A DNA stretch of 64,000 nt, taken from NCBI GenBank assembly GCA_965222525.1, contig OZ244955.1, positions 640,140-704,139 of the forward strand, written 5' to 3'. The notes below the pieces were generated by a model. It was not told the origin of the DNA and ran no database searches. It was given only the letters and a program-made list of their open reading frames with translations. Origin of the DNA: Rickettsiales bacterium (GTDB taxonomy: Bacteria > Pseudomonadota > Alphaproteobacteria > Rickettsiales > UBA8987). The translations under genes and the position numbers were made by a program. Below, one piece after another: positions 3,029 to 54,121 of this stretch. How positions within the stretch are numbered: position 1 is the stretch's first letter; every line of letters begins with the position of its first letter.

Positions 3029-3063
3029 TATATAGTGTTTATACCTGAAATATTTAATGAAAT

Positions 3064-3253: not shown

Positions 3254-3333
3254 AGGGGCTTAAATATACCAGGTTAAAATACTATAATATACTACCGCTA
3301 AAACCTGTAACCTGTCACTTAAAACCTGAAATA

Positions 3334-7728: not shown

Positions 7729-7808
7729 GTCTTAGGTTACAGGTTGTAGGTTACAGGTTTAAGTTTTAATATATAATAACTAGGAATTTGGTCAAATCAC
7801 TTGTAACA

Positions 7809-18411: not shown

Positions 18412-18717
18412 GGGTAGGGTATTTTCAGCGTAACTGAAAGCAATTTAATAGGAATTTTTCATAACTGCAATATGTTACGGATAAATTTGCTGAAGCCAAC
18501 AGGCGATATATGGTATAATAACAGTAATTCAACCTGAAATATCTACCTGCCTACTGCTCCCCCGCTTTACAGGGGAGCAGATGAGACAAGGGCTTAAGCC
18601 CGCAGTCGAATCGCGGGGGGTAGTGAGTAAGTGGAAAATAGAAACAGGAATGAGTTAGCTTCTGTTCCAGTTTCTATTTTCCAGTTTCCACACCTCCCGC
18701 CAATTCGCCAAGATGAC

Positions 18718-19419: not shown

Positions 19420-20943
19420 TCAGACAACATTATGTAAAATAAGTTCTTCTTCCCTGTCTACCAGGCTGTTATATAAATCACGATAGGCGGAGTGCTGGTC
19501 GGTTTTGTTGTAATATTGCTTTACTCGCCTGCGGGTGTTTTCGCTGCATTTGGCATGATGCTCTGCATCGGTCAATAGCGGTAGTAATTCGCCGGCAATT
19601 GCACGTGCATTGGAAAGCGGGGTAATACCCCCGCCCGCACCAACAGGAGGATGCTCATCATCACGTCCCATGATCAGTTCGCGGCAGGAGCCTACATCAG
19701 TTGCAACACAGGGAATTCCCGCCGCTCCTGCCTCCAGTATTACCAATGGTTGTGCTTCACTTATACTGCTCAATACCAGCGCATCAACCTGCCCCAGATA
19801 TTCCAGCAGATTCACCTTGCCGGTAAATGTTACTACCGATTCCAGATTGTAGTTTTTTACCATAGCTACACATTCGTGGTAGTATTCTTCATCCTCATCA
19901 GTTCCTCCCATGATAAAAGCACGTAAATCCGGTATATCCTCGCACAGCCGCCACATCGCACGGATAAAAGTCTTGATATCCTTTATCGGAACTACTCTGC
20001 CTATCAGCGCAACCGTGGGCGGATGGTCATTCTCCCGCTTCACGGAAGAAAATTTCTCATAGTCAATCCCGTTGGGAATAACCCGCATCTTGGCCATATC
20101 AGCCCCGTCCATCGACTGGAAAGTCTGGTTACCACGGTATAATGTTACAATCTGTTCGCTGGCTTCATAGCACAACCTTGAATAGGCGGCGAACTCATCT
20201 ATCCAGAAATCGCGAAGTTCCCGCTTGGCATTATCTACCTGGCTTATCGAAAGGTTATATGCCTTCTGGTCGAGAAGCCAGTCGGCAGAGGCAATTTCTA
20301 TCCGGCGCTCATTGGTATAAATCCCGTGCTCGGTGACTATGCATGGCCTGCCTGTTTCCATATGGGCGCGGGCAAGGAACAGCCCGGCATAGCCGGTGCA
20401 CAGGGCATGATAGGCTTTTGCCTCGGGCAAATCCGCCAGCAGCACAGCATACAATCCGCCGAGTAATGCCCGCCATGACCAGAAATAGTCGATAAAGGCA
20501 GTATCCGGCATCGACTTCTCATACATGGAAAGCAGCATTTGCCAGGCATGTTCGGAATTGAGCAATATATCGGCATTAAGCTGGTGTTTATATTCTCCGA
20601 GCGCATCGATAACCTGTTTGAGCGATTCAAGCGTTACCCTGTTTTTCTGGATATCGAGCAGGGGGGCTTCAAGTTTTGTGAATAATTTCCTGAGTTTTTT
20701 CGCAGGGATAAATACCTTGTTATCCGGTAGCTGCTGCAGGAAAACATTGGTTATACCAACTACATTTTCCGGCAGTTCATAGCGCATTTCCAGTTCGGCA
20801 CCAGGTGCTACCAGTGCAACTATATGGAAATTCAGATGGTTCTGTTCGGCAATCAGCTCATGCGTCCAGCCCGATACCCCCCCCGGTACATAGGGGTATG
20901 TACCCTCCAAAAACAGGCATATATCTATGTTTTTGTCTTGCAT
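19420..20943 (-). CDS. PelF-like GT4 glycosyltransferase (DUF3492 N-terminal domain)
   Basis: The N-terminus ICLFLEGTYPYVPGGVSGWTHELI matches the DUF3492/PelF signature. The C-terminal GT4 region has an E(x7)E-like LVLSSISEAQPLVILEAGAAGIPCVATDVG. Confidence 0.7.
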   Translation of the reverse strand: MQDKNIDICLFLEGTYPYVPGGVSGWTHELIAEQNHLNFHIVALVAPGAELEMRYELPENVVGITNVFLQQLPDNKVFIPAKKLRKLFTKLEAPLLDIQKNRVTLESLKQVIDALGEYKHQLNADILLNSEHAWQMLLSMYEKSMPDTAFIDYFWSWRALLGGLYAVLLADLPEAKAYHALCTGYAGLFLARAHMETGRPCIVTEHGIYTNERRIEIASADWLLDQKAYNLSISQVDNAKRELRDFWIDEFAAYSRLCYEASEQIVTLYRGNQTFQSMDGADMAKMRVIPNGIDYEKFSSVKRENDHPPTVALIGRVVPIKDIKTFIRAMWRLCEDIPDLRAFIMGGTDEDEEYYHECVAMVKNYNLESVVTFTGKVNLLEYLGQVDALVLSSISEAQPLVILEAGAAGIPCVATDVGSCRELIMGRDDEHPPVGAGGGITPLSNARAIAGELLPLLTDAEHHAKCSENTRRRVKQYYNKTDQHSAYRDLYNSLVDREEELILHNVV

Positions 20944-21011
20944 TATATTGAGTGCTAAGTTCTGAGTCTCTGCTGTACCGTCTCAACACTTAACACTCAG
21001 CACTCAACACT
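20944..21011. repeat. intercistronic inverted repeat built from the GAGTGCTAAGT / GTGTTGAG word shared with repeat family B
   Basis: The sequence attgagtgctaagttctgagtc...caacacttaacactcagcactcaacac fills the whole gap between the NMO-like stop and the PelF-like start. The same words occur at about 45720-45770 and 51715-51780. Confidence 0.6.
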
Positions 21012-22418
21012 TTAACCTCCCGTCATAATCCGGTCCACCAGCTGCTTCACCGTCGGGATGAAGCCGTTTTTGTAAAACGGATCGCTGGCAAATTTGTAAG
21101 CGTTATGGCCGGAGAACATAAGGTTATCCTCAACCGAATCACCATGGGCAATATTCTGCAGGGTCTTCTGTATGCAATAGCTGCGCGGGTCGGTACGCCT
21201 GCCGGTCGTATAATCATCATGATCTTTCCAGTTGCTGAATTTGCAATGGCTCAGGCAGCCCATACATTCAATCTGATCCTTGGTAATCTGGTTAGCCTGC
21301 TCTTTCGATACAAAAATAAGCGTTGAATCCGGCGTTTTCATCGGCTCGTCATAGCCTTGTTTCTCCCATTCCTTTACCTGCGGCATATCATCCGGCGAAA
21401 TATATACATGACGCTGGCGTACACCCACCGGCAGAGGCTCGGTCAGATAACCTTCCGGCGCAGTGGCATATTGTATCTGGCGCTGCTCACGTCCCTGCAG
21501 TTCTTTCAGAAAAGCATTATCTACCGCTGAGGAATAAAAACCGGTCGGGCTGAAACGGTTAAGATAAACATCCCCCTCCTTGAGCGTTAATAACCTCTTC
21601 TTCCACTCATCAGATACCGGGCTTTCCTCGGTCAGTATGGGACGAGTGCCGAACTGGAATACAACCGGCCCTATATCCGGATTATCCAGCCAGTCCTGCC
21701 AATCCCTGATATGCCATACCCCGCCGGCCATAACTACCGGTACAGTCTCCAGCCCAACGCTGTTCATAAACTTGCGTAACTCCACCACCCGCGGATATGG
21801 ATTTTCCGGCCTTTTCGGGTCTTCATTGCTGGAAAGCCCGTTATGCCCGCCTGCAAGCCACGGGTCTTCATATACTACCCCGCCGAGCAAATCCCTGCTT
21901 TTATTATATGCCCGCTTCCATAATGCCCGAAACGCCCGCATTGAGGAGATTATCGGGTAATAATGCACATTATACTGTCCGGCGATTTCCCCTAGCCGGT
22001 AAGGCATCCCGGCACCACAGGTAATACCGTGAATCAGGCCTTTGGCTTTCTCCAGGATTCCGTGCAGTACCCGCTCGGCACCGCCCATCTCCCACAATAT
22101 GTTCATATGGATACGCCCCTTGCCGCCGGCAGTTTCATGGGCAATTTGCGCCTGTTCGACTCCGCCATCTATACCGTAACGAATCAACTCCTCATGACGG
22201 TCACGACGGGTCTTGCCCTTATATATTTGCGGAATTATATGGCCCTTTTCATCATATGAATCGGCATTGACGCCGGAGAATGTCCCCACCGCACCGGCAG
22301 CAGCAAATGCACCGGAACTCCTGCCGCTGGTAATGGAAATCCCCTTACCGCCCTCGATAATCGGCAGCACCTCCTTGCCGGAGATAATAACAGAATTTAA
22401 CCCTTTAAGTATCGACAT
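21012..22418 (-). CDS. nitronate monooxygenase / FabK-like FMN oxidoreductase family protein (long form)
   Basis: TIM-barrel FMN-binding pattern: PIIEGGKGISITSG, GITCGAGMPY and VVMAGGVWHIRDWQDW. The exact function cannot be read from the sequence. Confidence 0.6.
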   Translation of the reverse strand: MSILKGLNSVIISGKEVLPIIEGGKGISITSGRSSGAFAAAGAVGTFSGVNADSYDEKGHIIPQIYKGKTRRDRHEELIRYGIDGGVEQAQIAHETAGGKGRIHMNILWEMGGAERVLHGILEKAKGLIHGITCGAGMPYRLGEIAGQYNVHYYPIISSMRAFRALWKRAYNKSRDLLGGVVYEDPWLAGGHNGLSSNEDPKRPENPYPRVVELRKFMNSVGLETVPVVMAGGVWHIRDWQDWLDNPDIGPVVFQFGTRPILTEESPVSDEWKKRLLTLKEGDVYLNRFSPTGFYSSAVDNAFLKELQGREQRQIQYATAPEGYLTEPLPVGVRQRHVYISPDDMPQVKEWEKQGYDEPMKTPDSTLIFVSKEQANQITKDQIECMGCLSHCKFSNWKDHDDYTTGRRTDPRSYCIQKTLQNIAHGDSVEDNLMFSGHNAYKFASDPFYKNGFIPTVKQLVDRIMTGG

Positions 22419-24297: not shown

Positions 24298-24387
24298 AAT
24301 TTTAGGTTGCAGGTTACAGGTTTTAGGTTACAGAAGGAGCCTGACCTGTTTATTATATGTTTTGATAGTAATGTGCAAGTTGTATGG

Positions 24388-37450: not shown

Positions 37451-37870
37451 CTACTTATTATCCGCTTCGGCGATGAAGGCATCGATCACCGACTGGGCTA
37501 TGTCAACCTCGCCCTGGGCGGCTTCCTTTTCCTTCTCGGTTTTTGCCTGCTGATGGAGCTTCTTGGTGGCCTCCAGACGCTTTTCCATGGCCTCTCTGGT
37601 ATGATTGGCAAAATCATAGGCCTCGGTAGCCAGTACCGTGCAGCGTTCATTGGTTATCTCGGCCACACCGCCGGCCACCAGATAGCGTGCCACTATCTCA
37701 TTGCCCTGATATGAGCGTATCACCCCCGGACGCAGATTGGATATCACCGGCGCATGTCCGGCCAGAACACCCATATCTCCCTCAGCCCCCGGCACAACCA
37801 CCATCTCCACCTCATCGGAGGAGAGAAGCTTCTCGGGTGTAACCAGGTCGAATTTTAATGACTGCGTCAT
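37451..37870 (-). CDS. atpC: F1 ATP synthase epsilon subunit
   Basis: LVTPEKLLSSDEVEMVVVPGAEGDMGVLAGHAPVISNLRPGVI is the epsilon beta-sandwich pattern. It is the last gene of the atp F1 set. Confidence 0.9.
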   Translation of the reverse strand: MTQSLKFDLVTPEKLLSSDEVEMVVVPGAEGDMGVLAGHAPVISNLRPGVIRSYQGNEIVARYLVAGGVAEITNERCTVLATEAYDFANHTREAMEKRLEATKKLHQQAKTEKEKEAAQGEVDIAQSVIDAFIAEADNK

Positions 37871-38335
37871 GATAATAGATGATAGATTATGGATGATAGA
37901 ATTAAATCTTTATTTTGCTTCGTAAATTTTGCAACATCCTTATTATAATTTCGTATTCATTATTCCAGTTATTAAAGGTTTTGGTATCTATATACCCCAA
38001 GTCAACACAATAGCACAACCAGATTTGCATTTCACTTGCGGAACCTATTGCTATGGAAATAAACCGCTTGAATTCTGCCTTTGAATGAGATTGTTTTACG
38101 AACCCCTCGGCCAGATTTGCACAAACAGACTTACTCGCCCTGCGCACCTGCTTGGCAAGGTCATACTGCTCTATCTGCGGAAATTCAAGACTTGCCTTAT
38201 GAATTTCCAGGGAGACAGCATAGGCTTTTTTAAAAACATCAAGGTCTCTTGCACTTTTAACCAGTCTTGAAGTTATATCCGTAACGTCTGCCATATTTTC
38301 CCCTCCATCATCCATCATCTATAATCCATCATCTG
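37871..38335 (-). mobile_element. IVS-like cassette 1: four-helix-bundle ORF bracketed by inverted repeats
   Basis: Arms at 37878-37899 (gatgatagattatggatgatag) and 38312-38333 (reverse complement gatgatggattatagatgatgg) match at 19 of 22 positions. All three differences are A/G. The cassette abuts the atpC start codon. Confidence 0.45.
37902..38294 (-). CDS. four-helix-bundle protein (23S rRNA intervening-sequence protein / Avd-like family)
   Basis: ARDLDVFKKAYAVSLEIHKASLEFPQIEQYDLAKQVRRASKSVCANLAEGF...AIGSASEMQIWLCYCVDLGYI matches the family pattern (F.vw..A..l...iy..t..fP..E.y.L..Q.rRAa.Si..NIAEG). The start is taken at MADVTD. The upstream MMDDGGEN is encoded by the repeat arm. Confidence 0.75.
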   Translation of the reverse strand: MADVTDITSRLVKSARDLDVFKKAYAVSLEIHKASLEFPQIEQYDLAKQVRRASKSVCANLAEGFVKQSHSKAEFKRFISIAIGSASEMQIWLCYCVDLGYIDTKTFNNWNNEYEIIIRMLQNLRSKIKI

Positions 38336-38360
38336 TTTATAGAACATATAATCGCCAGAT

Positions 38361-38735
38361 TCAATATGGTAAATTATCGGGAGCGACTCCGATATAGTCA
38401 GGCTCGGGGTTGGTGGTAAACTGAACGGCTTTTATTTGCTCCTCTCCCTGCAGAAATGCCTTGCCAACCCGGTGCATGCCGTCCATTACACGGCCATCCG
38501 AGGCAAGAATTATAGGAAAACTCAAGTCAGCGTCCCGGATTAGACCTGCATGCTCAAATACGCTTCTGCATGTAGGTGTTTTGCCATCAAGGAACCAGAA
38601 TGGTTCGTCAATTTCCCTTATTTCAGAAAGAGGAACCATCTTTGGTACGAACCCGCCGGAAAGCTCTATCAGACGGTCGATATCCCACGCTTTCAACCCC
38701 GCCCCGGACGGCTGGAAGTGATATTGCTTTCTCAT
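38361..38735 (-). CDS. small ParB/sulfiredoxin-like (ParB N-terminal domain) protein
   Basis: PIILASDGRVMDGMHRVGKAFLQG resembles the DGxHR core of ParB-N/Srx-fold proteins. This assignment is from memory of the motif only. Confidence 0.45.
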   Translation of the reverse strand: MRKQYHFQPSGAGLKAWDIDRLIELSGGFVPKMVPLSEIREIDEPFWFLDGKTPTCRSVFEHAGLIRDADLSFPIILASDGRVMDGMHRVGKAFLQGEEQIKAVQFTTNPEPDYIGVAPDNLPY

Positions 38736-38769
38736 GATGGTTGGGTGTTACAACTGTTTTTGTATTCCC

Positions 38770-39414
38770 TTAAAATCCTAAAGCACGTTCAGCACTTTTT
38801 AGCTCCTTAAGCTGGTTCTTAACACCAAGAGCTTCTCCGATTTTATTAGTGATAATACCTTCAATGATTTCTCTGGTTGATCTATCAGAAACCTGTTCTG
38901 CTTTATCATATGCCTCACCTATTGTTTTGCTCGGCAGTAGAGCTCCTAAAATTGTCGCAATGTTTTTATTGGTTCTATGCTCATATGTAACTTTCGCCTT
39001 CATTTCATTGTTATCAATTTCTAATGAACGTAGATTATCTCTATTCTTGTTTATGAAGTTGAACTGGGTTTCATAAGCACGAGCTCCTTCACCATACTTG
39101 GCTATAAACTCATTAAGCTTACCTTGTGTATTAGTTATAACTGCGCCAGGGTCTACTCTTGAAGCGCCATCAAAGGTATGCAAAGCGTTGCTTTCTATAA
39201 TGTTATAGTTGCCTCTTTCTCCGTATTCTTCTTTTGCTTTCTTGATAATCTGGTTTCTTGTAAGACTTTTTTCATTTTCCAAAGCAGAAGCAATTGAATA
39301 AATCGCAGCATTAACACCGGGTTGGATTTCATCAAAAGATGGATCCCCTGTTGCTAAATCTTTAGTGGACTGCGCCCAAGCTTTCACCTGATTGTTTTCT
39401 AGTTTGTCTGACAT
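38770..39414 (-). CDS. orphan protein (214 aa), cysteine-free, no signal peptide
   Basis: The start is chosen at MSDKLENNQ, preceded by AAGGAG with a 7 nt spacer. I recognise no family motif. It has its own promoter-like motif at 39489-39521. Confidence 0.5.
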   Translation of the reverse strand: MSDKLENNQVKAWAQSTKDLATGDPSFDEIQPGVNAAIYSIASALENEKSLTRNQIIKKAKEEYGERGNYNIIESNALHTFDGASRVDPGAVITNTQGKLNEFIAKYGEGARAYETQFNFINKNRDNLRSLEIDNNEMKAKVTYEHRTNKNIATILGALLPSKTIGEAYDKAEQVSDRSTREIIEGIITNKIGEALGVKNQLKELKSAERALGF

Positions 39415-39488
39415 TTCTCTCTCCTTAAAGTTAAAACCTGCCACCAATCCCCCCATGGAAAAGGTAGGCTGTTTTGTTTATGGGAGGG

Positions 39489-39521
39489 AGTATAGCAGAG
39501 AAATGTTAAAGTTTTATGACA
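39489..39521 (-). promoter_or_regulatory. extended -10 promoter-like motif shared with 29761-29793
   Basis: The minus strand reads TGTCATAAAACTTTAACATTTCTCTGCTATACT (TGnTATACT), about 70 nt upstream of the 39414 start. Confidence 0.45.
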
Positions 39522-39653
39522 GGATTACATTTTTTTGAAAAAATTTTCAGGAGGAGCCTAACCAGTTGGAATATATAGTTTTATTTTTGCAAAAATAATT
39601 TTGACAATCTGTCACTAGCAGTAAATATACCTGTATTTCCTTAAATAGTGTCG

Positions 39654-39872
39654 TCAAATTCTACCATTATGCGCTTCCACATAAGAGCGCAGAACGGCAT
39701 TCATATAGGACTGATAACCTTTTCCCTGTGATTTAAACCAGTCAACAACCTCTTTATCTGCACGGAAGGATATCATCTGCTTGGGAGAAGTATTGTGTAA
39801 TATCTTCAAATATTTCCAGAAATCACCGGTCAGGTCAGGAATATCGGAATAATCAATTTCGGAATCAGGCAT
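39654..39872 (-). CDS. BrnA-family antitoxin-like protein (no BrnT partner adjacent)
   Basis: MPDSEIDYSDIPDLTGDFWK...ISFRADKEVVDWFKSQGKGYQSYMNAVLRSYVEAH matches the BrnA pattern (DSEIDYSDIPE...ISIRLD.DVL.WFK..G.GYQT.IN..LR). The longer ORF start (39917, MMDDRGE) lies inside the repeat. Confidence 0.65.
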   Translation of the reverse strand: MPDSEIDYSDIPDLTGDFWKYLKILHNTSPKQMISFRADKEVVDWFKSQGKGYQSYMNAVLRSYVEAHNGRI

Positions 39873-39901
39873 CTCAGCCAATTCCCTAGCTGTTTTTTCT
39901 C

Positions 39902-39932
39902 CTCTATCATCCATCATCTATAATCCATCATC
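39902..39932. repeat. third copy of the GATGATGGATTATAGATGATGG word, abutting the atpD stop
   Basis: ctctatcatccatcatctataatccatcatc is identical to 38303-38333 except at one base. It is inverted relative to 37878-37899. Confidence 0.8.
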
Positions 39933-39938
39933 CAGCAG

Positions 39939-41372
<1,434 letters not shown>

Positions 41373-41386
41373 TTACTCCTTGAAAA

Positions 41387-41857
41387 GAAACTGGAAACTG
41401 GAAATTAGAAACTGGAATTTAATTACTTTCTGTCTTTAATCTTACTTCTGAGATTTTGCAGCATCCTGGATACGATATTATATTCCTCAACCCACTTGTT
41501 ATGCTTGTTTTTATCGATATAACCGAGATCAAGGCAATATTTTATCCATATTTTCATCTCTCCGCATGAACCTATCGACATAGAAACGAATCGCCGAAAT
41601 TCCGGAGTAGAATGCACTTGCTTATAAAAACCTTCTGCTAAATTTGCGCATACAGACTTGCTAGCCCTGCGCATCTGTTTAGCAAGGTCATATTGTTCTA
41701 CCTGTGGAAATTTAAGGCTAGTTCTGTGAATGTCCAGAGAAACAGCGTATGCTCTTTTGAAAACTTCCAAATCCTGAGGCTCTCTGACGTAACTGGAGAT
41801 GCTCTCAACATTACCCTCTTCCATACTTCCGGCTTCTAGTTTCCAGTTTCCAGTTTC
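41387..41857 (-). mobile_element. IVS-like cassette 2: four-helix-bundle ORF bracketed by a 24 nt inverted repeat
   Basis: 41387-41410 is gaaactggaaactggaaattagaa. The reverse complement of 41834-41857 is gaaactggaaactggaaactagaa. They match at 23 of 24 positions. The unit is 471 bp. Confidence 0.55.
41423..41824 (-). CDS. four-helix-bundle protein (23S rRNA intervening-sequence protein / Avd-like family), paralog of 37902..38294
   Basis: PQDLEVFKRAYAVSLDIHRTSLKFPQVEQYDLAKQMRRASKSVCANLAEGF...SIGSCGEMKIWIKYCLDLGYI is roughly two-thirds identical by eye to the other copy. The start is taken at MEEGNV. The upstream METGNWKLEAGS is encoded by the repeat arm. Confidence 0.75.
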   Translation of the reverse strand: MEEGNVESISSYVREPQDLEVFKRAYAVSLDIHRTSLKFPQVEQYDLAKQMRRASKSVCANLAEGFYKQVHSTPEFRRFVSMSIGSCGEMKIWIKYCLDLGYIDKNKHNKWVEEYNIVSRMLQNLRSKIKDRK

Positions 41858-41865
41858 CATATTTA

Positions 41866-42600
41866 TTATCCTTTCTCCGCAACCACCATCAATGACACCC
41901 CGAATGGAAATCTTATCTTTCCTATAAAAAACCTCTCGCTGCCAAAAATTTTTATCAGCAGGCTGTTAACGAAATTTCCCGGCAGGGTCAGGTTCGATAC
42001 CTTGCTTTTTTTATTTCTGAATTTCTCCACCATCCTCACCAGTGCTATCGGTGGAAACAGCCAGAAATTAAAATAGCTGGCATATTTTATATTAAAGCCC
42101 TCCGCTTTTAGCAATCCGGTCAGTCCCGCCCTGTTGTAGCGACGGAAATGATGATGGTCCGTATCATGTGCCGACCATAAAAACTGAAATGCCGGAACGG
42201 TCAGGAAAATCATACCATTATCTTTTAGCTGCCCTTTCAGTACCTCCAGTGTTTTCTGGTCATGTTCTATATGCTCAAGCACATCAAATGCAACAATTAA
42301 ATCGAACTTTTTATCCGCAAATGCAGTATTATCAGGCAATTCGATAGATTCGACATTTTCAGCAACTCCTTTTTCCCTTGCCACCTGTCTTGCGGTTGCA
42401 TCATATTCCGCTGCATAAACCCTGCCATATTGCGACAGCATCTCCAGATTGCCGCCACTACCGCAGCCTACTTCCAGAATTTCCGCATCCTGCGGAAGCT
42501 GCAACCTGTCAAGCATACGCCTGATTATCTTCCTGCGGGCAACAAACCACCAGTGCCTGCCCTCCAGCTCCGCCATCTTTATGTAGGCCTCGCGCTCCAT
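41866..42600 (-). CDS. class I SAM-dependent methyltransferase
   Basis: HWWFVARRKII plus SAM motif I ILEVGCGSGGNLEML and a post-I acidic residue. A GGGGAG Shine-Dalgarno sequence lies 5 nt upstream. It sits between atpG and atpD on the same strand. Confidence 0.8.
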   Translation of the reverse strand: MEREAYIKMAELEGRHWWFVARRKIIRRMLDRLQLPQDAEILEVGCGSGGNLEMLSQYGRVYAAEYDATARQVAREKGVAENVESIELPDNTAFADKKFDLIVAFDVLEHIEHDQKTLEVLKGQLKDNGMIFLTVPAFQFLWSAHDTDHHHFRRYNRAGLTGLLKAEGFNIKYASYFNFWLFPPIALVRMVEKFRNKKSKVSNLTLPGNFVNSLLIKIFGSERFFIGKIRFPFGVSLMVVAEKG

Positions 42601-42622
42601 TACGCTCCCCTATTATAAAAGT

Positions 42623-43525
42623 CTACAATGCCTCTGCGCCCGAGATGATCTCGGTCAGTTCGGTTGTAATAGCAGCCTGGCGGGTACGGTTATATTGCAG
42701 GGTTAAATCCTTTATCATCTCACCCGCATTGCGAGTGGCGTTATCCATCGCAGTCATCCGTGCCCCCTGCTCGCTTGCCGCATTCTCCAGCTGGGCGTGG
42801 AAAATCTGCACCGCAATATTTCTGGGCAGAAGCGCAGATAAAATCTCCTCCTCGCCAGGTTCATATTCATATACGGCGGCTACACCATCCTCGGCCTCTT
42901 CCGCAAGAACCCCATCCATCTCCAATGGAATCAATTGCTGGAAGGTTACTTTCTGGGTAAGTGCCGATTCAAACTTGTTATACACAACCGAGCAGGAATC
43001 AATATCACCAGCCTCAAACATGGTAATAACCTGATTCGCAACCGCTTCCGACTGCACATATTCCGGCTTTGCCTGACTGGAAGTATCTATACGTTCCGAC
43101 ACATTATTCTCATAACCATGTTTTAGCTGTTCCCAGCCTTTCTTACCGACTATCATCAGTCTGGCCAGCTTGCCCTTGCCTTCCATTTCGGTGATTTTCT
43201 GCTTTATCGCCCGCACCAGAGAACTGTTCAGCCCGCCGCAAAGCCCGCGGTCAGAAGTAACCGCTATAATCAGATGATTTTTATCGGCAATATCTCCCGC
43301 CGCATCACGCCTGCCCGAAAGAAGCGCAGGGGAATTTTCCGGATCAGCCTTGGTCGCCAGAGCCGCAAGCATACGCTCCATCTTTTCGGTATATGGCCGT
43401 GCCGCCTCCGCACGCTCCTGCGCACGCTTGAGCTTGCTCGCAGCCACCATCTTCATCGCCTTGGTGATTTTCTGCGTAGACTTAACACTACTTATACGGT
43501 TTTTCAGGTCCTTGAGATTTGCCAT
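42623..43525 (-). CDS. atpG: F1 ATP synthase gamma subunit
   Basis: MANLKDLKNRISSVKSTQKITKAMKMVAASKLKRAQ and the C-terminal QAAITTELTEIISGAEAL are gamma signatures. Confidence 0.93.
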   Translation of the reverse strand: MANLKDLKNRISSVKSTQKITKAMKMVAASKLKRAQERAEAARPYTEKMERMLAALATKADPENSPALLSGRRDAAGDIADKNHLIIAVTSDRGLCGGLNSSLVRAIKQKITEMEGKGKLARLMIVGKKGWEQLKHGYENNVSERIDTSSQAKPEYVQSEAVANQVITMFEAGDIDSCSVVYNKFESALTQKVTFQQLIPLEMDGVLAEEAEDGVAAVYEYEPGEEEILSALLPRNIAVQIFHAQLENAASEQGARMTAMDNATRNAGEMIKDLTLQYNRTRQAAITTELTEIISGAEAL

Positions 43526-43758
43526 CAGATATGTAGTTCCGTAGTCTGGTTGCTTTCCTCGTTAACTACCAAAAGGCTGGGTTCATCCTTACCTTTCAGT
43601 TGTTCATTAGCATTAAGCAACTCAATTCCATATATTTTCCCATCAGGAGACAGGTCAATATTCAACTCGCTACTGACCGATATGGTATCTACCATCCCGT
43701 CTTTCTCACGTAGTTTCATATACGCAATATTATGTTTTGGGTCGTATGTCAGTTTCAT
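43525..43758 (-). CDS. DUF2283-family protein (putative antitoxin partner)
   Basis: MKLTYDPKHNIAYMKLRE...DLSPDGKIYGIELLNANE fits the DUF2283 pattern (YD.E.D.LYI.L...D....G...GIEIL.AS). Its TGA overlaps the atpG ATG (TGATG). Confidence 0.65.
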   Translation of the reverse strand: MKLTYDPKHNIAYMKLREKDGMVDTISVSSELNIDLSPDGKIYGIELLNANEQLKGKDEPSLLVVNEESNQTTELHI

Positions 43759-43765
43759 CTTATCC

Positions 43766-44029
43766 TCAGAAGTATTTTACTATAACAGTGATAACCAGCC
43801 AATTTTCTTCCTCCTCTACTGCAAAAACCTCAAGCTGCTTATTATCATAAAACTTCCTGTTCCAGTGAGAGGAAAAATTAAAAGTTCTGCGGAAACCTAT
43901 TCTACCATACTTTGCAGAAAATTGCTCTCCATTTTCAACTGTAGATATAACCTCTTCTCTGGTTGCACCCCTTTCAACCATTCTTGCTTCAGCATGGGGA
44001 TGAAATTTCACATCCATGATTCTTTCCAT
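43766..44029 (-). CDS. DUF4258-family protein (putative toxin partner)
   Basis: FHPHAEARMVERGATREEVISTVENGE fits the DUF4258 N-terminal pattern (H...RM..R.I....V). Its ATG at 44029-44027 overlaps the atpA TGA (TGATG). Confidence 0.6.
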   Translation of the reverse strand: MERIMDVKFHPHAEARMVERGATREEVISTVENGEQFSAKYGRIGFRRTFNFSSHWNRKFYDNKQLEVFAVEEEENWLVITVIVKYF

Positions 44030-45564
44030 CAACTTTTCGCAAACACCTTAACAAATTTATCCAACGCGCTGCGGAGTTCCTTTTCGCTGTCTTCGGATAA
44101 TTTGCCTTCATTGCGGATTACATCCAGCAACCCCTGGTGTTTGCCATGCATTTCGCTCAGGAATTCCTTTTCAAAACGGGTTACATCCTTTGCATCTATA
44201 TCATCGAGATAACCATTTACACCGGCAAAGATGGAAACCACCTGCTCCTCCACCAGCAGCGGTGAATACTGGTCCTGCTTGAGCAGTTCCACCAGACGTG
44301 AACCGCGTGCCAGAAGTTTTTGCGTAGCCGCATCAAGGTCGGAGCCGAATTGTGCAAATGCCTCCATTTCACGGAACTGCGCCAGTTCCAGCTTAATCTT
44401 GCCTGCCACCTGTTTCATACCCTTGATTTGCGCTGCCGAACCTACCCTCGATACCGACAGTCCAACATTTACCGCCGGACGTACACCCTTATAAAACAGC
44501 TCGGTTTCAAGGAATATCTGGCCGTCGGTAATTGAAATCACATTAGTCGGGATATAGGCGGATACGTCACCGGCCTGGGTTTCGATAACCGGCAGGGCGG
44601 TAAGTGAACCGGCACCTTCTTCATCCGACATTTTAGCAGCCCGCTCAAGCAGCCGCGAGTGCACATAGAATACATCGCCCGGATAAGCCTCACGCCCCGG
44701 CGGACGGCGCAGCAATAGCGACATCTGACGATAGGCCACCGCATGTTTGGACAAATCATCATATGCAATCAGCGCATGCTTGCCGTTATCACGGAAATAC
44801 TCACCCATTGCACAGCCGGTATATGGTGCGAGGAACTGCAGCGGCGCCGATTCGGATGCGGTTGCGGCAACTATAATTGAATATTCAAGCGCACCTTCCT
44901 CCTCCAGCTTTTTGGCTATCTGCGCTACAGTCGAGCGCTTTTGCCCGATACACACATAGATACAGTAAAGTTTTTTACTTTCATCATCGCCTGCATTGAT
45001 GGATTTCTGGTTGAGGAATGTATCAAGAATCACGGCGGTCTTGCCGGTCTGACGGTCGCCGATAATCAACTCACGCTGGCCGCGCCCTACCGGAATCAGC
45101 CCGTCAATCGCCTTGATACCGGTCTGCACCGGCTCATGCACCGATTTACGTGCGATAATACCGGGAGCCTTTACCTCGATACGGGAACGGTTTTCGGTTA
45201 TCACCGGCCCCTTACCGTCGATAGGATTACCCAGCGCATCCACTACGCGGCCAAGCAGTTCGGGTCCTACCGGTACATCAACAATCCGGCCGGTACGCTT
45301 GACCGTATCGCCCTCCTTGATTTCCTTCTCGCCACCGAACAGCACTACCCCGACATTGTCCTCCTCGAGATTCAGCACCATCCCCACATTACCGCCGGGA
45401 AACTCCACCATCTCACCGGCCTGCACCTGGTCCAGCCCATATACGGTTGCAATACCGTCACCGACCGACACCACCTGCCCGATTTCTGCCAGTTCCGCCT
45501 CGGTTGAGAAATTGGCAATCTGCTTCTGCAAAATGCTTGATATTTCCGCTGCCTGAATTTGCAT
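44029..45564 (-). CDS. atpA: F1 ATP synthase alpha subunit
   Basis: [19 protein letters not shown] (P-loop) and [23 protein letters not shown]. Confidence 0.96.
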
Positions 45565-45617
45565 ATTATTCTCCTTTTATTACGTGTTTCTACCCGTTTT
45601 TCTTCGACTGTCGAGCG

Positions 45618-45842
45618 CCTCCCCCGCTTGCGGGGGAGGTAAGAAATTCTAGAAATCCATGTCCTCCGTAGCTTTAGCGCAGGAGGATTGATTTCAGAAT
45701 TTCTGGTGGGGGAATGTGTAAGTGTAAAGTGTTGAGTGCTAAGTCTCCTGCTGCAAACTCTCAGCACTTTAACCATTCCCTCCCCGAAAATCTGGCAATC
45801 AAAGATTGCTCAGATTTTCTCCCCTCCCGCAAGCGGGAGGGG
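45618..45842 (+). repeat. hairpin-terminated structured repeat family B, copy 1 (225 bp)
   Basis: Left terminus CCTCCCCCGC-TT-GCGGGGGAGG and right terminus CCCCTCCCGC-AA-GCGGGAGGGG are each perfect 10 bp hairpins. Internal hairpins include AGAAATTCT..GAATTTCT and GAAAATCTG..CAGATTTTC. It is collinear with 51643-51858. Confidence 0.85.
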
Positions 45843-45854
45843 TAGCTCCAGCTA

Positions 45855-46412
45855 TTACCCGGCTTTCTTCAAATAAACCTTTACCCTGTCCAGTTTTCCG
45901 CTCAGCGAGTCATCCAGCATTTGTGAGCCGATTTTTACAATCATCCCGCCGAGTATATCTTCGTCAAGCTTTTCCTCAACAGCCACTTCCTTGCCGGTCA
46001 TTTCTTTAAGTTCATTACCTATGCGGGTTATATCTGCCTTATCAAGCTTGTTTGCAACCGTAATTTCCGCCTGAACCTCCCCGCGCGCATTTGCAGCAAG
46101 CTCGGAGAAAGACGCACATATATCCGGCAAAAGCGATAACCTGCGGTTTTCCCCCAGTAATGCACAAAACTGGCCAATCAGTTTATCCGCCTTGATTTTC
46201 TTTACAATATCACCAATAGCAGCAGAAAGCTCTGACCTGGAAGTAGTCGGATTGCTCAAGGTTTTCTGTAATTCCTGCGATGACGCAATCACCGAATCAA
46301 GTTCATTTAATCCGGCTTCGATTTCTTCCAGCTTTCCCCCGGCCTTGCCAATCTCGAACAGCGCCTTTGCATAACGCCTGCCCAATACCAATTTCCCGAC
46401 TTTCCTTGCCAT
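45855..46412 (-). CDS. atpH: F1 ATP synthase delta subunit (OSCP)
   Basis: GRRYAKALFEIGKAGGKLEEIEAGLNEL... and the C-terminal GGMIVKIGSQMLDDSLSGKL fit the delta/OSCP pattern. It is the first gene of the F1 operon. Confidence 0.85.
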   Translation of the reverse strand: MARKVGKLVLGRRYAKALFEIGKAGGKLEEIEAGLNELDSVIASSQELQKTLSNPTTSRSELSAAIGDIVKKIKADKLIGQFCALLGENRRLSLLPDICASFSELAANARGEVQAEITVANKLDKADITRIGNELKEMTGKEVAVEEKLDEDILGGMIVKIGSQMLDDSLSGKLDRVKVYLKKAG

Positions 46413-50012: not shown

Positions 50013-50127
50013 GATTTTCTCCTCGTTTTTGTGCTCGGTGTTCAGTGTACGGTGTACGGAATACCAGCATAAAAACCCGAACACTGATAACAGAACACCG
50101 AACACCATAATACCCCTTTTCCGGTGA

Positions 50128-51618: not shown

Positions 51619-51642
51619 TATTTGTCAAGTTTTGTTGGAAAT

Positions 51643-51858
51643 CCTCCCCCGCTTGCGGGGGAGGCAAGAAATCCAGGGATTTTCAATCCTTAGGATTTCT
51701 GGTGGGGGAATAAATAAGTGCAAAGTGTTGAGTGCTAGGTCTCCTGTTGCAAACTCTCAGCACTAAACACACAGCACTCGGCACCTCATCATTCCCTCCC
51801 CGAAAATCTGGAAAGCATAGCTTTCTCAGATTTTCTCCCCTCCCGCAAGCGGGAGGGG
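51643..51858 (+). repeat. hairpin-terminated structured repeat family B, copy 2 (216 bp)
   Basis: It has the same termini and order of hairpins as 45618-45842. It fills the gap between the M16 peptidase stop (51860) and the trpE start (51618). Confidence 0.85.
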
Positions 51859-51859
51859 G

Positions 51860-53191
51860 TTACTCCGGATACAATTTCCCGGTCACGGAGCGTTCGGGTT
51901 TGAAGATATATTCTGCGGCAGCGGTAATTTGCGCAGAAGTTACATTATCAACCATAACAGGCCAGTTTTCAATATATGATGTATCCAGGCCGGAGACCAG
52001 TACCCTGCCATATATATGTGCCATATTCTGCAATCCATCCTGCGCATAGATAGCCTCTGCTTTCAGCTTTTTCTGCGCACGCTGTAATTCCTTATTTGTA
52101 ACCCCCTCATCCAGAATTGCCTTTAATTCCTGTTTTACCGCTGCTTCCACCCTGGCAAAATCAACATCCTTTGCCGGCACGACATACAGTGTAAATGAAG
52201 TCGGTCCCAGTGAAATATCATCATAATAAGCATAGGCCTGCAATGCCAGTTTCTTTTCCACTACCAGCGATTGATACAGCCTGCCGGTTTCGCTGCCACC
52301 CAGCACTTCCGCCAGCAATACCAGCGGCAGCGCATGTTCGCTCTTGCCATATGTACTGCTCGGTGCCAGATACATCCTTATCCATTCCGGCTCCCTTACC
52401 TTCTCATCCTGCACTGTAACCTCACGAAATGCCGAAGGTTGTGGCTCCATGGGGATTTCCCTTGGCGGGGTATCCTGCGCCGGGATATTGCCGTAATATC
52501 TCTCCGCCAGCGGACGCAATTCCTCTGCCGTAATATCGCCTGCAACAATAAGCACTGCATTATTCGGTGCATAATATTTACGGTAAAATGCCCCGGTATC
52601 ATGCAGTGTAAATTGCTCTATCTCATGCCGCCAGCCGATTGTAGGCTTGTTATATGGATGGTTGAGGTAAAGTGCCGCCCGCATCTGCTCGGTGAGCTTG
52701 TTGCGCGGCTTGTTATCAATCCGCGAACTGCGCTCCTCCAGCACAACATCACGCTCACGGGTAACCAGCTCTTCATCAAGCTGTAGGCCGGTCATCCGGT
52801 CAGCCTCCAGCATCATCGCAAGTGCCAGATTCTCCCGCGCAATATTCTGGAAATAGGTGGTGTTATCCTGTGTGGTGAATGCATTATCATTACCGCCGAA
52901 ATTGGCTATCAGTGAGGAGAATTCACCAGGCTGCAGATTTTCCGTCCCGCGAAACATCAGATGCTCCAGAAAATGCGCTATACCGGATTTGCCAGGCTCT
53001 TCGTCAATTGCCCCGACCTTGTACCATAACATATGCGAAACCGCCGCCACCCTGGGATTGGGAATCACATAAACCTCCAGCCCGTTACCCAGCGTAAAAT
53101 TCTCCACCCTGGGCGGATTGGCATGGGCAGGCGACAGGCAGACCAGTAACAGTACGAGAATCGGGAGGATGTTTGTTATGATTTTGTTCAT
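51860..53191 (-). CDS. M16 family zinc peptidase (pitrilysin-like)
   Basis: The HFLEHLMF (HxxEH) zinc site, then ...E...NAFT. Signal peptide MNKIITNILPILVLLLVCLSPAHA from the start at 53191. Confidence 0.85.
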   Translation of the reverse strand: MNKIITNILPILVLLLVCLSPAHANPPRVENFTLGNGLEVYVIPNPRVAAVSHMLWYKVGAIDEEPGKSGIAHFLEHLMFRGTENLQPGEFSSLIANFGGNDNAFTTQDNTTYFQNIARENLALAMMLEADRMTGLQLDEELVTRERDVVLEERSSRIDNKPRNKLTEQMRAALYLNHPYNKPTIGWRHEIEQFTLHDTGAFYRKYYAPNNAVLIVAGDITAEELRPLAERYYGNIPAQDTPPREIPMEPQPSAFREVTVQDEKVREPEWIRMYLAPSSTYGKSEHALPLVLLAEVLGGSETGRLYQSLVVEKKLALQAYAYYDDISLGPTSFTLYVVPAKDVDFARVEAAVKQELKAILDEGVTNKELQRAQKKLKAEAIYAQDGLQNMAHIYGRVLVSGLDTSYIENWPVMVDNVTSAQITAAAEYIFKPERSVTGKLYPE

Positions 53192-53204
53192 AGTTACGAT
53201 TACT

Positions 53205-53360
53205 GTCACCCCGGATGGTATGTTTTCTCCAAATTTTAATTTGGTAAGAAAACACCATTCCCGGGGTTATTATATAAGTCACGGAATTGTACAGGTAACC
53301 CCGAGAACGTTATTTTGTTACCAAATCACAGATTTGGACAAAATATACGTCCGGGGTGAC
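53205..53360 (-). repeat. structured palindromic repeat family A, copy 3 (156 bp, inverted orientation)
   Basis: Its reverse complement aligns along its full length with 37278-37433. The right-arm apical stem is CCAAAT/ATTTGG instead of CTGAATC/GATTCAG. Confidence 0.85.
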
Positions 53361-53368
53361 ATACATTA

Positions 53369-54019: not shown

Positions 54020-54121
54020 AAGGGAGAAAATAACACAGGGGCGCACGGTTGGCTACTGGTATTTAGCCATGGTCATTATGACCATTCACTAGACTCTAGA
54101 CTCCAGATTCTAACCACTCAA

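Follow-up and report, generated by a model that had tools for sequence, protein, structure and literature searches.

What is the stretch of about 2 kb that separates atpD from atpC in this genome, and why does the same repeat stand at both of its ends and once more inside it? An earlier note on this DNA had described it as an insertion of 2068 bp bounded by inverted copies of an arm, with one internal copy, and had proposed that it contains an IVS-like cassette. For about 35 years, intervening sequences (IVSs) have been familiar as a curiosity by which 23S rRNA is fragmented. In this study, we show that the layout of the insertion (37871-39938) is as described and that its relationship to the IVS family is strongly supported by its closest homologs. 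Our preferred reading, to which we assign a probability of roughly 0.6, is that an IVS-type selfish cassette of the 23S rRNA family has settled in a spacer of the atp mRNA operon, that foreign cargo was recombined into its 5′ arm, and that the resulting stems would be substrates of RNase III. Positions are those of the window, by which we mean the whole stretch of DNA analyzed (64 kb).

Results

In the closest relatives, just 9-79 nt lie between atpC and the upstream gene, which is atpD where it can be identified, and therefore the 2 kb found in the window is an insertion; this comparison of junctions had been proposed in the earlier note. The nearest atpC is 60% identical to that of the window, and the window atpD is 80-86% identical to the atpD of alphaproteobacterial MAGs. 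The insert of 2,068 nt reaches to the atpD stop codon (39939-41), is bounded by arms and has a 463-nt cassette with a PF05635 gene (IVP-B) nested inside it (cassette B; Table 1). The GC content of the inserts is 0.35-0.46, compared with 0.50-0.60 for the atp genes. Cassette B is not located in helix 45 or helix 25 of 23S rRNA, the usual IVS site, but between atpD and atpC; IVP-B is on the minus strand, as are atpD and atpC, and is in sense orientation to the host transcript. No intrinsic terminator was found on the minus strand from atpH to atpC, and Rfam and tRNA scans of the 64 kb window gave no match and no rRNA. The insert is probably co-transcribed with the atp genes.

Table 1. Features of the atpG-atpC region of the window
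Feature	Position	Strand	Remarks
atpC (F1 epsilon subunit)	37451..37870	(-)	Host gene downstream of insert; 139-aa ORF; PF02823 in homologs
Single 3′ arm	37871..37900	(-)	Complementary to both 5′ copies; TRF period 7, 4.3 copies
IVP-B, four-helix-bundle "23S rRNA intervening sequence protein"	37902..38294	(-)	PF05635, TIGR02436; 130 aa from MADV
Proximal 5′ arm copy with Shine-Dalgarno GGAGG	38296..38333; heptamer array 38304-38333	(-)	Shine-Dalgarno 8 nt before IVP start codon
Cargo gene 3, conserved hypothetical, 124 aa	38361..38735	(-)	Weak ParB-N / sulfiredoxin-like fold, MDGMHR motif
Cargo gene 2, orphan ORF, 214 aa	38770..39414	(-)	GC 0.38
Cargo gene 1, BrnA-antitoxin-like ORF	39654..39917	(-)	PF14384 E 1.1e-13, residues 43-80 only
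Distal (third) copy of 5′ arm with Shine-Dalgarno	39895..39932; heptamer array 39903-39932	(-)	6 nt past atpD stop; TRF period 7, 4.1 copies
atpD (F1 beta subunit)	39939..41369	(-)	Host gene upstream of insert; 476-aa ORF
Sister cassette A	41387..41859	(-)	atpG-atpD spacer; arms 41387-41417 and 41827-41859, (GAAACTG)n; IVP-A 41423-41860

IVP-B, which had been recognized beforehand as a paralogous four-helix-bundle ORF, matches the profiles PF05635 (E 8e-32) and TIGR02436 (E 5e-30) as well as the solved structure 2gsc (five identical chains in the entry; E 1.4e-10), and is 63% identical to IVP-A, its paralog in the atpG-atpD spacer. We compared the 80 loci that encode the closest homologs of the window IVPs (55-63% identity): 70 of them are within 23S rRNA, and the other 10 occupy spacers in housekeeping operons (atp, sucCD, accBC, rpsI-rpoZ). 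Nearly all of these loci have inverted arrays on both sides of the ORF, with a period of 7 nt or, in some operon-borne ones, of 8 nt, and the two arrays are complementary to each other in about 72 of the 80 loci and in 10 of 10 non-rRNA loci, with a word that varies by locus. The arrays around the rRNA-borne ORFs are 22-45 nt long, show a 7-nt spacing of CAG in 185 of 191 intervals, and have a period-7 self-match of 0.72 as against 0.27 in controls.

Operon-borne IVS cassettes recur in other Alphaproteobacteria. The contexts of the non-rRNA loci are atpD/atpC, atpG/atpD (twice), atpA/atpG, sucC/sucD (twice), accB/accC, rpsI/rpoZ and tolB/?. All 10 non-rRNA loci are co-oriented with the upstream host gene, and a co-oriented downstream cistron was identified in 8 of them; the arms start 0-6 nt past the upstream stop codon and end 0-17 nt before the downstream ATG where one is present. 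In a neighbor-joining tree, drawn without bootstrap support, the rRNA-borne IVPs form a clade that does not include the operon-borne ones. Searches of the open-access literature brought up no account of IVS-type cassettes from mRNA operons, and an earlier description elsewhere is possible. Among more distant relatives, an rmlD/IVP/rmlB cassette (L091) has the three-arm layout arm+ / IVP / arm+ / arm- and the GATGATR word of cassette B, yet its IVP is only 25-28% identical, whereas IVP-A and IVP-B are 63% identical and have different words. Sequence-specific binding of the arm word by the IVP was also considered and is thought unlikely, as the word is decoupled from the phylogeny of the protein.

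The orientation of the cassettes bears on whether the element could be a DNA transposon, MITE-like or composite, with the arms as its terminal inverted repeats and the third copy as the solo end of a second insertion that was only partial. An origin as transposition remnants was proposed early on for IVSs (discussed in PMC4990558), and the inverted terminal repeats, the foreign AT-rich content and the multicopy arm families of the window would all fit a transposon. However, every cassette examined is co-oriented with its host transcript (70/70 rRNA-borne, 12/12 operon-borne), which cut-and-paste would not require, and the arms are tandem arrays of locus-specific words, differing between A and B too, rather than a conserved terminal repeat. 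Moreover, the four ORFs of the insert include no transposase or recombinase family, and a target-site duplication is lacking: when the two outer flanks (ACTGCGTCAT and CAGCAGTTAA) and the one at the inner right (TGTTTATAGA) are compared, none repeats another. We regard a transposon origin as highly improbable.

The arms themselves were delimited from the 22-mer GATGATGGATTATAGATGATGG, which occurs at exactly three places in the 64 kb window if ≤3 mismatches are allowed, namely 37878-37899 (+, three mismatches, all A/G), 38312-38333 (-) and 39911-39932 (-), so that the two arms of cassette B are where the earlier note had placed them. The census of the arm word covered metagenomes as well as the 64 kb window. 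Since the arms are simple in sequence, rich in purines and repetitive within themselves, one might take the repeats for a chance or low-complexity coincidence; the probability of this is close to nil, as 100 shuffles gave 0 matches against the three observed and the architecture is repeated in dozens of independent loci. Extended to 30 nt, the arm at 37871-37900 (+) has a complementarity of 83% with 38304-38333 and of 87% with 39903-39932, both of which are in reverse complement. The full 3′ arm directly adjoins the atpC ATG (37870) at a distance of 0 nt and not of 8 nt as had been thought, and there is no Shine-Dalgarno sequence between the two.

Each arm consists of about 4.3 tandem heptamers (TRF: period 7, 4.1-4.3 copies), and period 7 is enriched in the window, with seven runs compared with 0-1 for each of the periods 5, 6 and 8-11. 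The word of arm B is GATGATR/GATTATR and lacks the CAG core typical of rRNA-borne arms. It had been claimed that cassettes A and B share one architecture and size and differ in their words; the words do differ and the sizes are close (473 nt for A, 463 nt for B), but the arms are tandem heptamer arrays and not arbitrary words. Arrays of this kind belong to dispersed families: a copy of arm A that matches at 23/24 positions is found 22.7 kb from it in the window, and the arm-B word is present in 65 metagenome contigs. The heptamer build of the arms, the dispersed array families and the recurrence of operon-borne cassettes are absent from the earlier note.

There are also solo heptamer arrays without a partner. 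In the window they are found at 7733-7759 and 24304-24333, directly upstream of start codons, and a further one is present in the atpD-atpC spacer of the closest relative (L081); heptamer arrays need not act only as stems. It may then be asked whether all of these arrays are leaders, in which case their inverted placement around the ORF would be secondary and the third copy would be just another leader array, before the BrnA-like gene. Besides the solo arrays, the position of the 3′ arm against the atpC ATG without a Shine-Dalgarno sequence would be expected of a leader, and there is a precedent in the TAACTGA repeats of Beggiatoaceae, Cyanobacteria and Bacteroidetes (MacGregor 2015, PMC4679880). 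A test for selection at the level of the sense RNA, in which G-U and A-C mismatches of 63 distinct stems were compared on the sense strand, gave no significant excess (49 vs. 39, p = 0.34), which also suits this reading. On the other hand, complementarity of the flanking arrays is kept while the word changes from locus to locus, which is what is expected of a stem and not of one binding protein, and the decoupling of the word from IVP phylogeny in IVP-A, IVP-B and L091 argues in the same direction. The Coxiella IVS, which has an S23p ORF, a 28-bp stem and GACAGAT heptamers, is cut by RNase III, and its published stem thus counts against a role as leaders only (PMC4990558). In our estimate, this explanation of the locus is distinctly unlikely.

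The third copy lies near atpD, as claimed, and the direct duplication to which it belongs is longer than had been noted: 38296-38333 and 39895-39932 are identical at 36 of 38 positions (95%). The duplicated segment consists of the 5′ arm, the Shine-Dalgarno sequence and the four A's that follow, has sharp edges, and lies on either side of the AT-rich cargo of 1.56 kb. The N-termini MMDDGGE and MMDDRGE, which had rightly been taken for artifacts, arise where the duplicated arm is read through; the public gene call of IVP-B, an exact match of 130 aa, starts at MADV, and the first seven codons of cargo gene 1 (MMDDRGE) come from the arm, its true start being likely at 39872. This gene (GC ~0.37-0.40) has no adjoining partner toxin. 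The 214-aa ORF belongs to no Pfam, NCBIfam or PADLOC family, and among 1.84 billion representative proteins it finds only itself and one weak match (E 6.5e-5). The 124-aa ORF likewise belongs to no Pfam, NCBIfam or PADLOC family, but has 3,766 homologs at ~60-69% identity, which occur elsewhere in unrelated genomic contexts; its GC content of 0.50 is unlike that of the neighboring cargo genes, and its AF2 model (pLDDT 81) has as best PDB matches the ParB N-domain, Noc and Srx, all of them weak (E 5e-3, TM 0.37).

Two histories may be considered for this arrangement. In the preferred reading the cargo entered the 5′ arm of the IVP cassette. Alternatively, two independent cassettes with the same arm word could have stood in tandem, the upstream one, with the BrnA-like, orphan and ParB-like genes, having later lost its 3′ arm. 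The distal arm follows the atpD stop codon as the 5′ end of a normal cassette does, arrays of the same word are common in the vicinity of IVSs (32 of 75 loci), and the layout of L091 (arm+ / IVP / arm+ / arm-) would be in keeping with tandem cassettes. Nevertheless, no second complementary (3′) arm, not even a degenerate one, is present in the 1.56 kb of cargo, where the best duplex is -16 kcal/mol as against a shuffled mean of -13.9; the sharp-edged 36/38 duplication, which includes the Shine-Dalgarno sequence and the four A's, is a better fit to one duplicated template; and no heptamer-armed cassette with non-IVP genes was found among the homolog loci. We consider tandem cassettes rather unlikely. 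Upstream of cassette A, the methyltransferase gene (41866-42600) is not enclosed by the arms of the cassette and has no arm copy on its own upstream side.

The two pairings open to the single 3′ arm were predicted in silico, as the earlier note had suggested. The outer stem, formed with the distal copy, is predicted at -43.1 kcal/mol and the inner stem, formed with the proximal copy, at -36.9 kcal/mol. In the fold of the full 2,121-nt sense RNA the outer stem dominates the ensemble, the distal copy and the 3′ arm being paired in the MFE with 27.3 expected base pairs, and the sense RNA folds with better pairing than the antisense RNA. When the arms are folded alone the two pairings are almost equal (-34.5 vs. 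-34.2), and the advantage of the outer stem is therefore due to flanking bases. In the 483-nt inner cassette the proximal arm forms the terminal stem in both MFE and centroid, with a fold only modestly better than those of shuffles (z = -1.73); cassette A also folds with a terminal stem (z = -4.27). Co-transcriptional folding or translating ribosomes could favor the inner stem or neither. The earlier note had posed a nested insertion and alternative RNA pairings as two options; we think that they are compatible and that both hold.

Discussion

In the mechanism that we favor, the core of the insert is a promoter-less PF05635 gene, IVP-B, held in the loop of a stem of about 30 bp whose strands are inverted arrays of some four tandem heptamers. 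An AT-rich, mosaic cargo of 1.56 kb with three unrelated genes would then have been recombined into the 5′ arm, leaving the 38-nt direct duplication on either side of it and one complementary 3′ arm, which is the layout expected from a single crossover (Campbell-type) or from unequal exchange at a repeat-rich arm. In the atp transcript the single 3′ arm could pair with either 5′ copy to give two alternative stems, of which the proximal would loop out 0.46 kb, that is the IVP only, and the distal all 2.07 kb. If the analogy with rRNA IVSs holds, the long, near-perfect duplex would be cut by RNase III. Such cleavage would remove the foreign RNA, part the atpD message from the atpC message, and free the atpC start codon, which is located right at the base of the stem and lacks a Shine-Dalgarno sequence.

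These findings indicate that the IVS element, ORF and heptamer stem together, also lives between the cistrons of essential mRNA operons and can carry extra genes. Since the start codon of atpC is at the foot of the stem, we reason from this position that the insert must affect expression of the downstream gene. The atp locus offers a tractable non-ribosomal system in which excision by RNase III, the role of the protein, and the origin and recombination of the arms can be approached, and it links IVSs to the heptamer repeats of Beggiatoaceae, Cyanobacteria and Bacteroidetes. There are practical lessons for annotation as well: the arms lead to N-termini that are falsely extended, and they are places where assemblies are prone to break.

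A much broader proposal, which we put forward tentatively and do not at present favor, is that heptamer stems may be a general platform colonizing the transcribed spacers of operons with the highest expression (rRNA, atp, suc, acc, rml, ribosomal-protein). Solo arrays, ORF-less hairpins, IVP cassettes and cargo-bearing three-arm cassettes might then be stages of one life cycle, in which the arms would capture promoter-less foreign genes by recombination and RNase III would remove the parasite at the RNA level. If true, this would unify two puzzles, the nature of 23S IVSs and that of the bacterial heptamer repeats of the STRR/TAACTGA type.

Comparison with known systems

The cyanobacterial STRR sequences precede start codons and consist of heptamers in direct repeat. 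TAACTGA repeats consist of two to six tandem 7-mers, are intergenic, and lie a few nucleotides from a start codon, often without a canonical RBS (MacGregor 2015, PMC4679880). A similar behavior is seen in the window for the 3′ arm, whose 4.3 copies directly adjoin the atpC ATG (0 nt), and for the two solo arrays (7733 and 24304). However, TAACTGA repeats have been described as direct arrays that hardly ever have an inverted partner and have no link to PF05635 genes or IVSs, whereas the GATGATR/GATTATR array of the window has two complementary partners. RNase III sites lie between the cistrons of phage T7 early mRNA and in the processing stems of rRNA operons. With these the window stem would share its proposed action, in which a long intercistronic duplex is cut, messages are parted and a start codon is exposed; the T7 and rRNA stems are nevertheless short local hairpins or pairings of rRNA flanks, whereas the loop here holds 0.4-2 kb of foreign genes and two 5′ strands compete for one partner.

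Integron gene cassettes, with their attC hairpins, are likewise promoter-less foreign ORFs in one orientation behind a host promoter with imperfect inverted repeats between them. In contrast, the arms of the window are tandem heptamers without GTTRRRY core sites, there is no integrase or recombinase among the ORFs of the insert, and the direct duplication points to homologous and not site-specific exchange. The accessory protein Avd of DGRs belongs to a related four-helix-bundle fold family, and PF22296 (bAvd-like) appears among the precomputed matches of some homologs, two distant IVPs matching it below the gathering cut-off. IVP-B differs in scoring 14.3 bits against the Avd equivalog model NF033474 (cut-off 80), and no reverse transcriptase or template/variable repeat was seen beside it, its neighbors being atp and cargo genes.

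In the 23S rRNA IVSs of the Coxiella burnetii, Leptospira, Brucella and Xanthomonas type there is an S23p / PF05635 ORF, as in the window, and the window proteins are 55-63% identical to ORFs within 23S rRNA. The elements are of similar size (~0.46-0.6 kb), and in both the 23S IVSs and cassette B a terminal stem of ~22-36 bp made of 3-5 tandem heptamers encloses an ORF in its loop, in sense to the host transcript. They differ in the host RNA, which is an mRNA operon spacer for cassette B and helix 45 or helix 25 for 23S IVSs, and in the extra 1.56 kb of non-IVP cargo and the duplicated arm of cassette B, from which RNase III would, by analogy with the rRNA elements, excise the foreign RNA.

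Results

Comparison with relatives upholds the earlier view that the 2 kb between atpD and atpC is inserted DNA: the stop codon of the one and the start codon of the other are 2,068 nt apart, the spacers before atpC are short in the three nearest relatives (9–79 nt), and GC content agrees, being 0.50–0.60 in the atp genes and 0.35–0.46 in every inserted block. On this evidence from sequence, the 2,068 nt are an insertion. The databases hold no close relative of the organism, the nearest atpC being 60% identical, and its atpD is 80–86% identical to those of alphaproteobacterial MAGs. The spacers of the three relatives are so varied that the junction before atpC is a hot spot with a series of states (Table); the word of the solo array in one of them (L081) resembles the arms of the atpD/IVP/atpC cassette of L003, and that of the hairpin in another (L083) is the word of two solo arrays in the window. 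A palindromic repeat family of ~160 nt (76–84% identity, 52–66-nt arms, core ATAACCCCGAGAA) was also seen, a candidate REP/MITE-like element or terminator.

Table. Features of the window and of loci in other genomes and metagenomes (coordinates without a locus label refer to the window; IVP, PF05635 four-helix-bundle gene)
Feature	Position	Description
atp operon	37451-46412	minus strand; foreign DNA at every junction, all AT-richer than atp genes
atpD stop codon	39939-41	minus strand
atpC start codon	37870	minus strand
22-mer copy	37878-37899	plus strand; three A/G differences
22-mer copy	38312-38333	minus strand
22-mer copy	39911-39932	minus strand
30-nt arms	37871-37900; 38304-38333; 39903-39932	3'; proximal 5'; distal 5'
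38-nt direct duplication	38296-38333; 39895-39932	36/38 identical
IVP-B	37902-38294	gene of cassette B
IVP-A	41423-41860	gene of cassette A
214-aa ORF	38770-39414	preceded by good Shine-Dalgarno sequence
atpH-atpA junction	45618-45842	~225-nt element, G-rich hairpin ends, bounded by CCTCCCCCGCTTGCGGGGGAGG-type palindromes
second copy of ~225-nt element	51640-51861	79% over 167 nt
atpA-atpG junction	43525-44032	DUF4258 + DUF2283 gene pair
atpG-atpD junction		methyltransferase gene + IVP cassette A
atpD-atpC junction		cargo + IVP cassette B
~160-nt palindromic repeat	37277-37434; 53201-53361; 3063-3254	first copy just downstream of atpC
mini-IVS hairpins	18629-18690; 20940-21012; 50031-50106; 54089-54112	tandem heptamers, ORF-less
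solo heptamer arrays	7733-7759; 24304-24333	word AACCTGT/AACCTAC/AACCTAA; no inverted partner
atpD-atpC spacer	L081:1836-1870	35 nt; solo array TAGTGAT TAGTAAC TAGTAAT TGGTAAT
atpD-atpC spacer	L083:436-514	79 nt; ORF-less heptamer-armed hairpin, -37.4 kcal/mol
spacer before atpC	L082:205-213	9 nt; DUF2283-type gene, not atpD, directly upstream
hairpin between spacer tRNAs	L001:775-865	-69 kcal/mol
hairpin between 23S and 5S	L001:4665-4860	-101 kcal/mol
other atp junctions	L003:335-1024; L007:3875-4297; L069:407-1270	more unrelated ORFs or long spacers
PF05635 gene	L091:6214-6760	between rmlD and rmlB
operon-borne IVP	L003	atpD / IVP / atpC; flanks by tblastn
operon-borne IVP	L006, L069	atpG / IVP / atpD
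operon-borne IVP	L007	atpA / IVP / atpG
operon-borne IVP	L012, L018	sucC / IVP / sucD; L018 from ORF map alone
operon-borne IVP	L050	accB / IVP / accC
operon-borne IVP	L062	rplM-rpsI / IVP / rpoZ
operon-borne IVP	L057	tolB / IVP
operon-borne IVP	L064	periplasmic-binding protein gene / IVP

Across the whole window, the 22-mer of the earlier note has three copies, where that note had placed them, and no others; 100 shuffles of the sequence gave no match. The arms are inverted copies as described, but the repeat comparison extends them from 22 to 30 nt, with the plus-strand arm 83% complementary to the proximal and 87% to the distal copy. Both minus-strand copies lie in the 38-nt direct duplication, the homology of which ends abruptly at both edges; in mRNA sense the duplicated unit runs from an arm into GGAG(G/A)GAAAA and so comprises the arm and the Shine-Dalgarno sequence of the IVP-B gene. 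Along the mRNA, the stop codon of atpD is followed by 6 nt, distal 5' arm, the cargo (BrnA-like, 214-aa and 124-aa ORFs), proximal 5' arm, IVP-B, 3' arm and atpC, with 0 nt between the 3' arm and the atpC ATG. Tandem Repeats Finder resolves each arm of cassette B into 4.1–4.3 copies of a 7-mer (GATGATA / TCCATCA), and those of cassette A, in the atpG-atpD spacer, into 3.7–4.4 copies of GAAACTG. Within the window the enrichment is specific to period 7, which has seven runs as against 0–1 for periods 5, 6 and 8–11. Since the arms are tandem repeats, pairing is also possible in registers slipped by 7 nt, and slipped pairs were found in the repeat comparison.

The product of IVP-B matches PF05635 (E 8e-32) and TIGR02436 (E 5e-30), as well as the solved structure 2gsc (E 1.4e-10; XCC0516, an entry of five chains), and is 63% identical to its paralogue IVP-A. 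As a DGR Avd protein it was rejected, scoring 14.3 bits with the Avd equivalog model (cut-off 80). A public database entry holds the exact 130-aa product with MADV as its first residues, so that the additional N-terminal MMDDGGEN of the mechanical ORF results from read-through of the arm and is an artefact; the MMDDRGE start of the BrnA-like ORF likewise derives from the duplicated arm, and the suspicion that the N-termini MMDDGGE and MMDDRGE are repeat artefacts was thus well founded. In the cargo, the BrnA-like ORF matches PF14384 at residues 43–80 only, and no toxin partner was found for it; the 214-aa ORF matches no family and has one weak match, otherwise none, among 1.84 billion representative proteins. 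The family of the 124-aa ORF is large and well conserved (3,766 matches, in unrelated genomic contexts) and has no Pfam model; the structural model of the ORF product (pLDDT 81) weakly resembles the ParB N-domain/sulfiredoxin fold (E 5e-3, TM 0.37). No link to mobility is suggested by any of the three cargo genes. In composition the cargo is a mosaic, with a GC content of 0.38–0.40 in the BrnA-like and 214-aa genes and 0.50 in the 124-aa gene.

With an alignment of both window proteins and their homologues as the query, a search of a genome set that has one member per species yielded 80 homologue loci (identity 55–63%). Rfam placed 15 of the 20 loci tested inside bacterial LSU rRNA, on the rRNA strand, and comparison with one of these Rfam-placed 23S genes put 70 of the 80 inside 23S rRNA. 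Nearly all of these rRNA-borne intervening sequences (IVSs; 473–605 nt) lie ~1,185 nt into the 23S gene, which we infer to be the Coxiella site named helix 45 (PMC4990558); one, L010, has its IVS at another site, nearer the 5' end. Inverted repeats of tandem heptamers, 22–45 nt long, flank the ORF in about 72 of the 80 loci. Averaged over 43 distinct 5' arms from rRNA-borne loci, the self-match at period 7 is 0.72, as against 0.16–0.26 at neighbouring periods and 0.27 in random 32-mers. In rRNA-borne 5' arms, CAG spacing is exactly 7 in 185 of 191 intervals. Further arrays of the same word occur within 2.5 kb of the IVS in 32 of 75 loci, L001 included. In genomes with a helix-45 IVS, of which L001 is an example (Table), the rRNA operon has long hairpins of the same word in its other transcribed spacers as well.

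At the non-rRNA loci (10 of 10), the IVP gene occupies a spacer within a conserved operon and points the same way as the host gene upstream of it; eight of the 10 also have an identified downstream cistron in the same orientation. These contexts were read from ORF maps, with flanks confirmed by Pfam for seven loci and by tblastn for L003, and L018 known from its map only. All of these loci carry inverted tandem-repeat arms, with a period of 7 or 8, and each uses its own word. Between the upstream stop codon and the 5' arm there are 0–6 nt, and the 3' arm ends 0–17 nt before the start codon of the downstream cistron, where there is one, directly adjoining the atpC ATG in L003 as in the window. 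In a neighbour-joining tree (no bootstrap; indicative), 12 operon-borne IVPs fall outside the clade that holds all rRNA-borne ones. Scanned for in metagenomes, the arm-B word occurs in 65 contigs, nearly all with longer GATGATA/GATTATA arrays; in two of them, distant PF05635 genes (25–28% identical) are flanked by such arms. One of these two, L091, with the GATGATR word as in cassette B, has a three-arm layout of arm+ / IVP / arm+ / arm-, the last two arms forming a local hairpin. Other atp junctions of L003, L007 and L069, also Alphaproteobacteria with operon-borne cassettes, hold further unrelated ORFs or long spacers (Table).

All ORFs are co-oriented with the atp operon and the stretch from atpH to atpC has no predicted intrinsic terminator on the minus strand, so the three arms probably lie on a single RNA. 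The earlier note had proposed alternative pairings that loop out about 0.45 or 2 kb. The duplex energies in the sense RNA are -36.9 kcal/mol for the proximal and 3' arms (antisense, -30.1) and -43.1 kcal/mol for the distal and 3' arms (antisense, -37.3). The predicted fold of the 2,121-nt RNA gives the outer stem alone (28 bp, 27.3 expected pairs; proximal/3' stem, 0.0). Reduced to their bare 30 nt, the arms give two pairings of equal energy (-34.5 and -34.2 kcal/mol); what favours the outer stem is a set of five additional pairs that join the 6 nt behind the atpD stop to codons 2–4 of atpC. Folded alone, the inner cassette forms its terminal stem (z = -1.73), as does, more convincingly, cassette A (z = -4.27). 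By analogy with rRNA IVSs, a stem of about 28 bp would be an RNase III substrate. If the outer stem were cut, all four foreign ORFs would come off the transcript; if the inner stem were cut, IVP alone would, and the cargo would stay attached to the atpD message at its 3' end. In both cases the start codon of atpC would be freed; in the uncut RNA it is predicted to lie at the stem foot, without a Shine-Dalgarno sequence. As a sign of selection on the sense RNA, the excess of G-U over A-C stem mismatches (49 vs 39) was not significant.

Heptamer arrays are also dispersed in the window. Three of the four mini-IVS hairpins lie between the stop and next start codon of co-oriented minus-strand genes, and that at 18629-18690, upstream of a pilin-like gene, carries a 23/24 copy of the cassette A arm, 22.7 kb away; the solo arrays end 4–6 nt before the ATG of minus-strand genes. 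This distant copy and the same-word arrays near IVSs indicate that arms belong to dispersed, genome-specific families, which would provide many recombination substrates. That the cargo is a second complete cassette, begun by the distal arm, was rejected, since the cargo holds no second complementary arm: its best duplex with the distal arm (-16 kcal/mol) is no better than in shuffles (mean -13.9). The insert has neither a target-site duplication nor a transposase. The duplication of arm and Shine-Dalgarno sequence around foreign DNA is most likely the footprint of a single crossover, which would have joined the resident 5' arm to a homologous arm on incoming DNA, or of unequal exchange at the repeat. 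The two direct copies agree at 29/30 positions of the arm, and with the complement of the 3' arm at 26/30 and 25/30, a pattern consistent with homogenisation or with a duplication that postdates the cassette.

Discussion

In the one well-studied case, the IVS of Coxiella burnetii, the terminal stem that encloses an S23p ORF has 28 bp, three to four heptamers (GACAGAT) stand immediately 5' of the ATG, RNase III cuts at the first repeat, and heptamer copy number differs among strains (PMC4990558). Cassette B has the same anatomy, an S23p-family ORF and a terminal heptamer stem, and together with the rRNA-borne homologues and their like arms this bears out its description as an IVS-like cassette. 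As far as sequence can tell, it is an IVS-type element in every respect except location: each testable defining feature of S23p-type IVSs is present, apart from residence in 23S rRNA. The cargo-bearing cassette with its third arm is a real instance of an IVS-type element in an mRNA operon, and the third arm makes it an instructive case of an IVS variant outside 23S rRNA.

Full-text searches of the open-access literature turned up no account of IVS-type cassettes in mRNA operons, nor one of heptamer arms as a family-wide trait of IVSs. Membership of the integrons, MITE/IS elements or DGRs was rejected, their defining features having been looked for and not found. Heptamer direct repeats upstream of start codons have been described in Beggiatoaceae, Cyanobacteria and Bacteroidetes (PMC4679880), and the window element shares their array form and position; the repeats in that paper have almost no inverted partners and are not linked there to IVSs.
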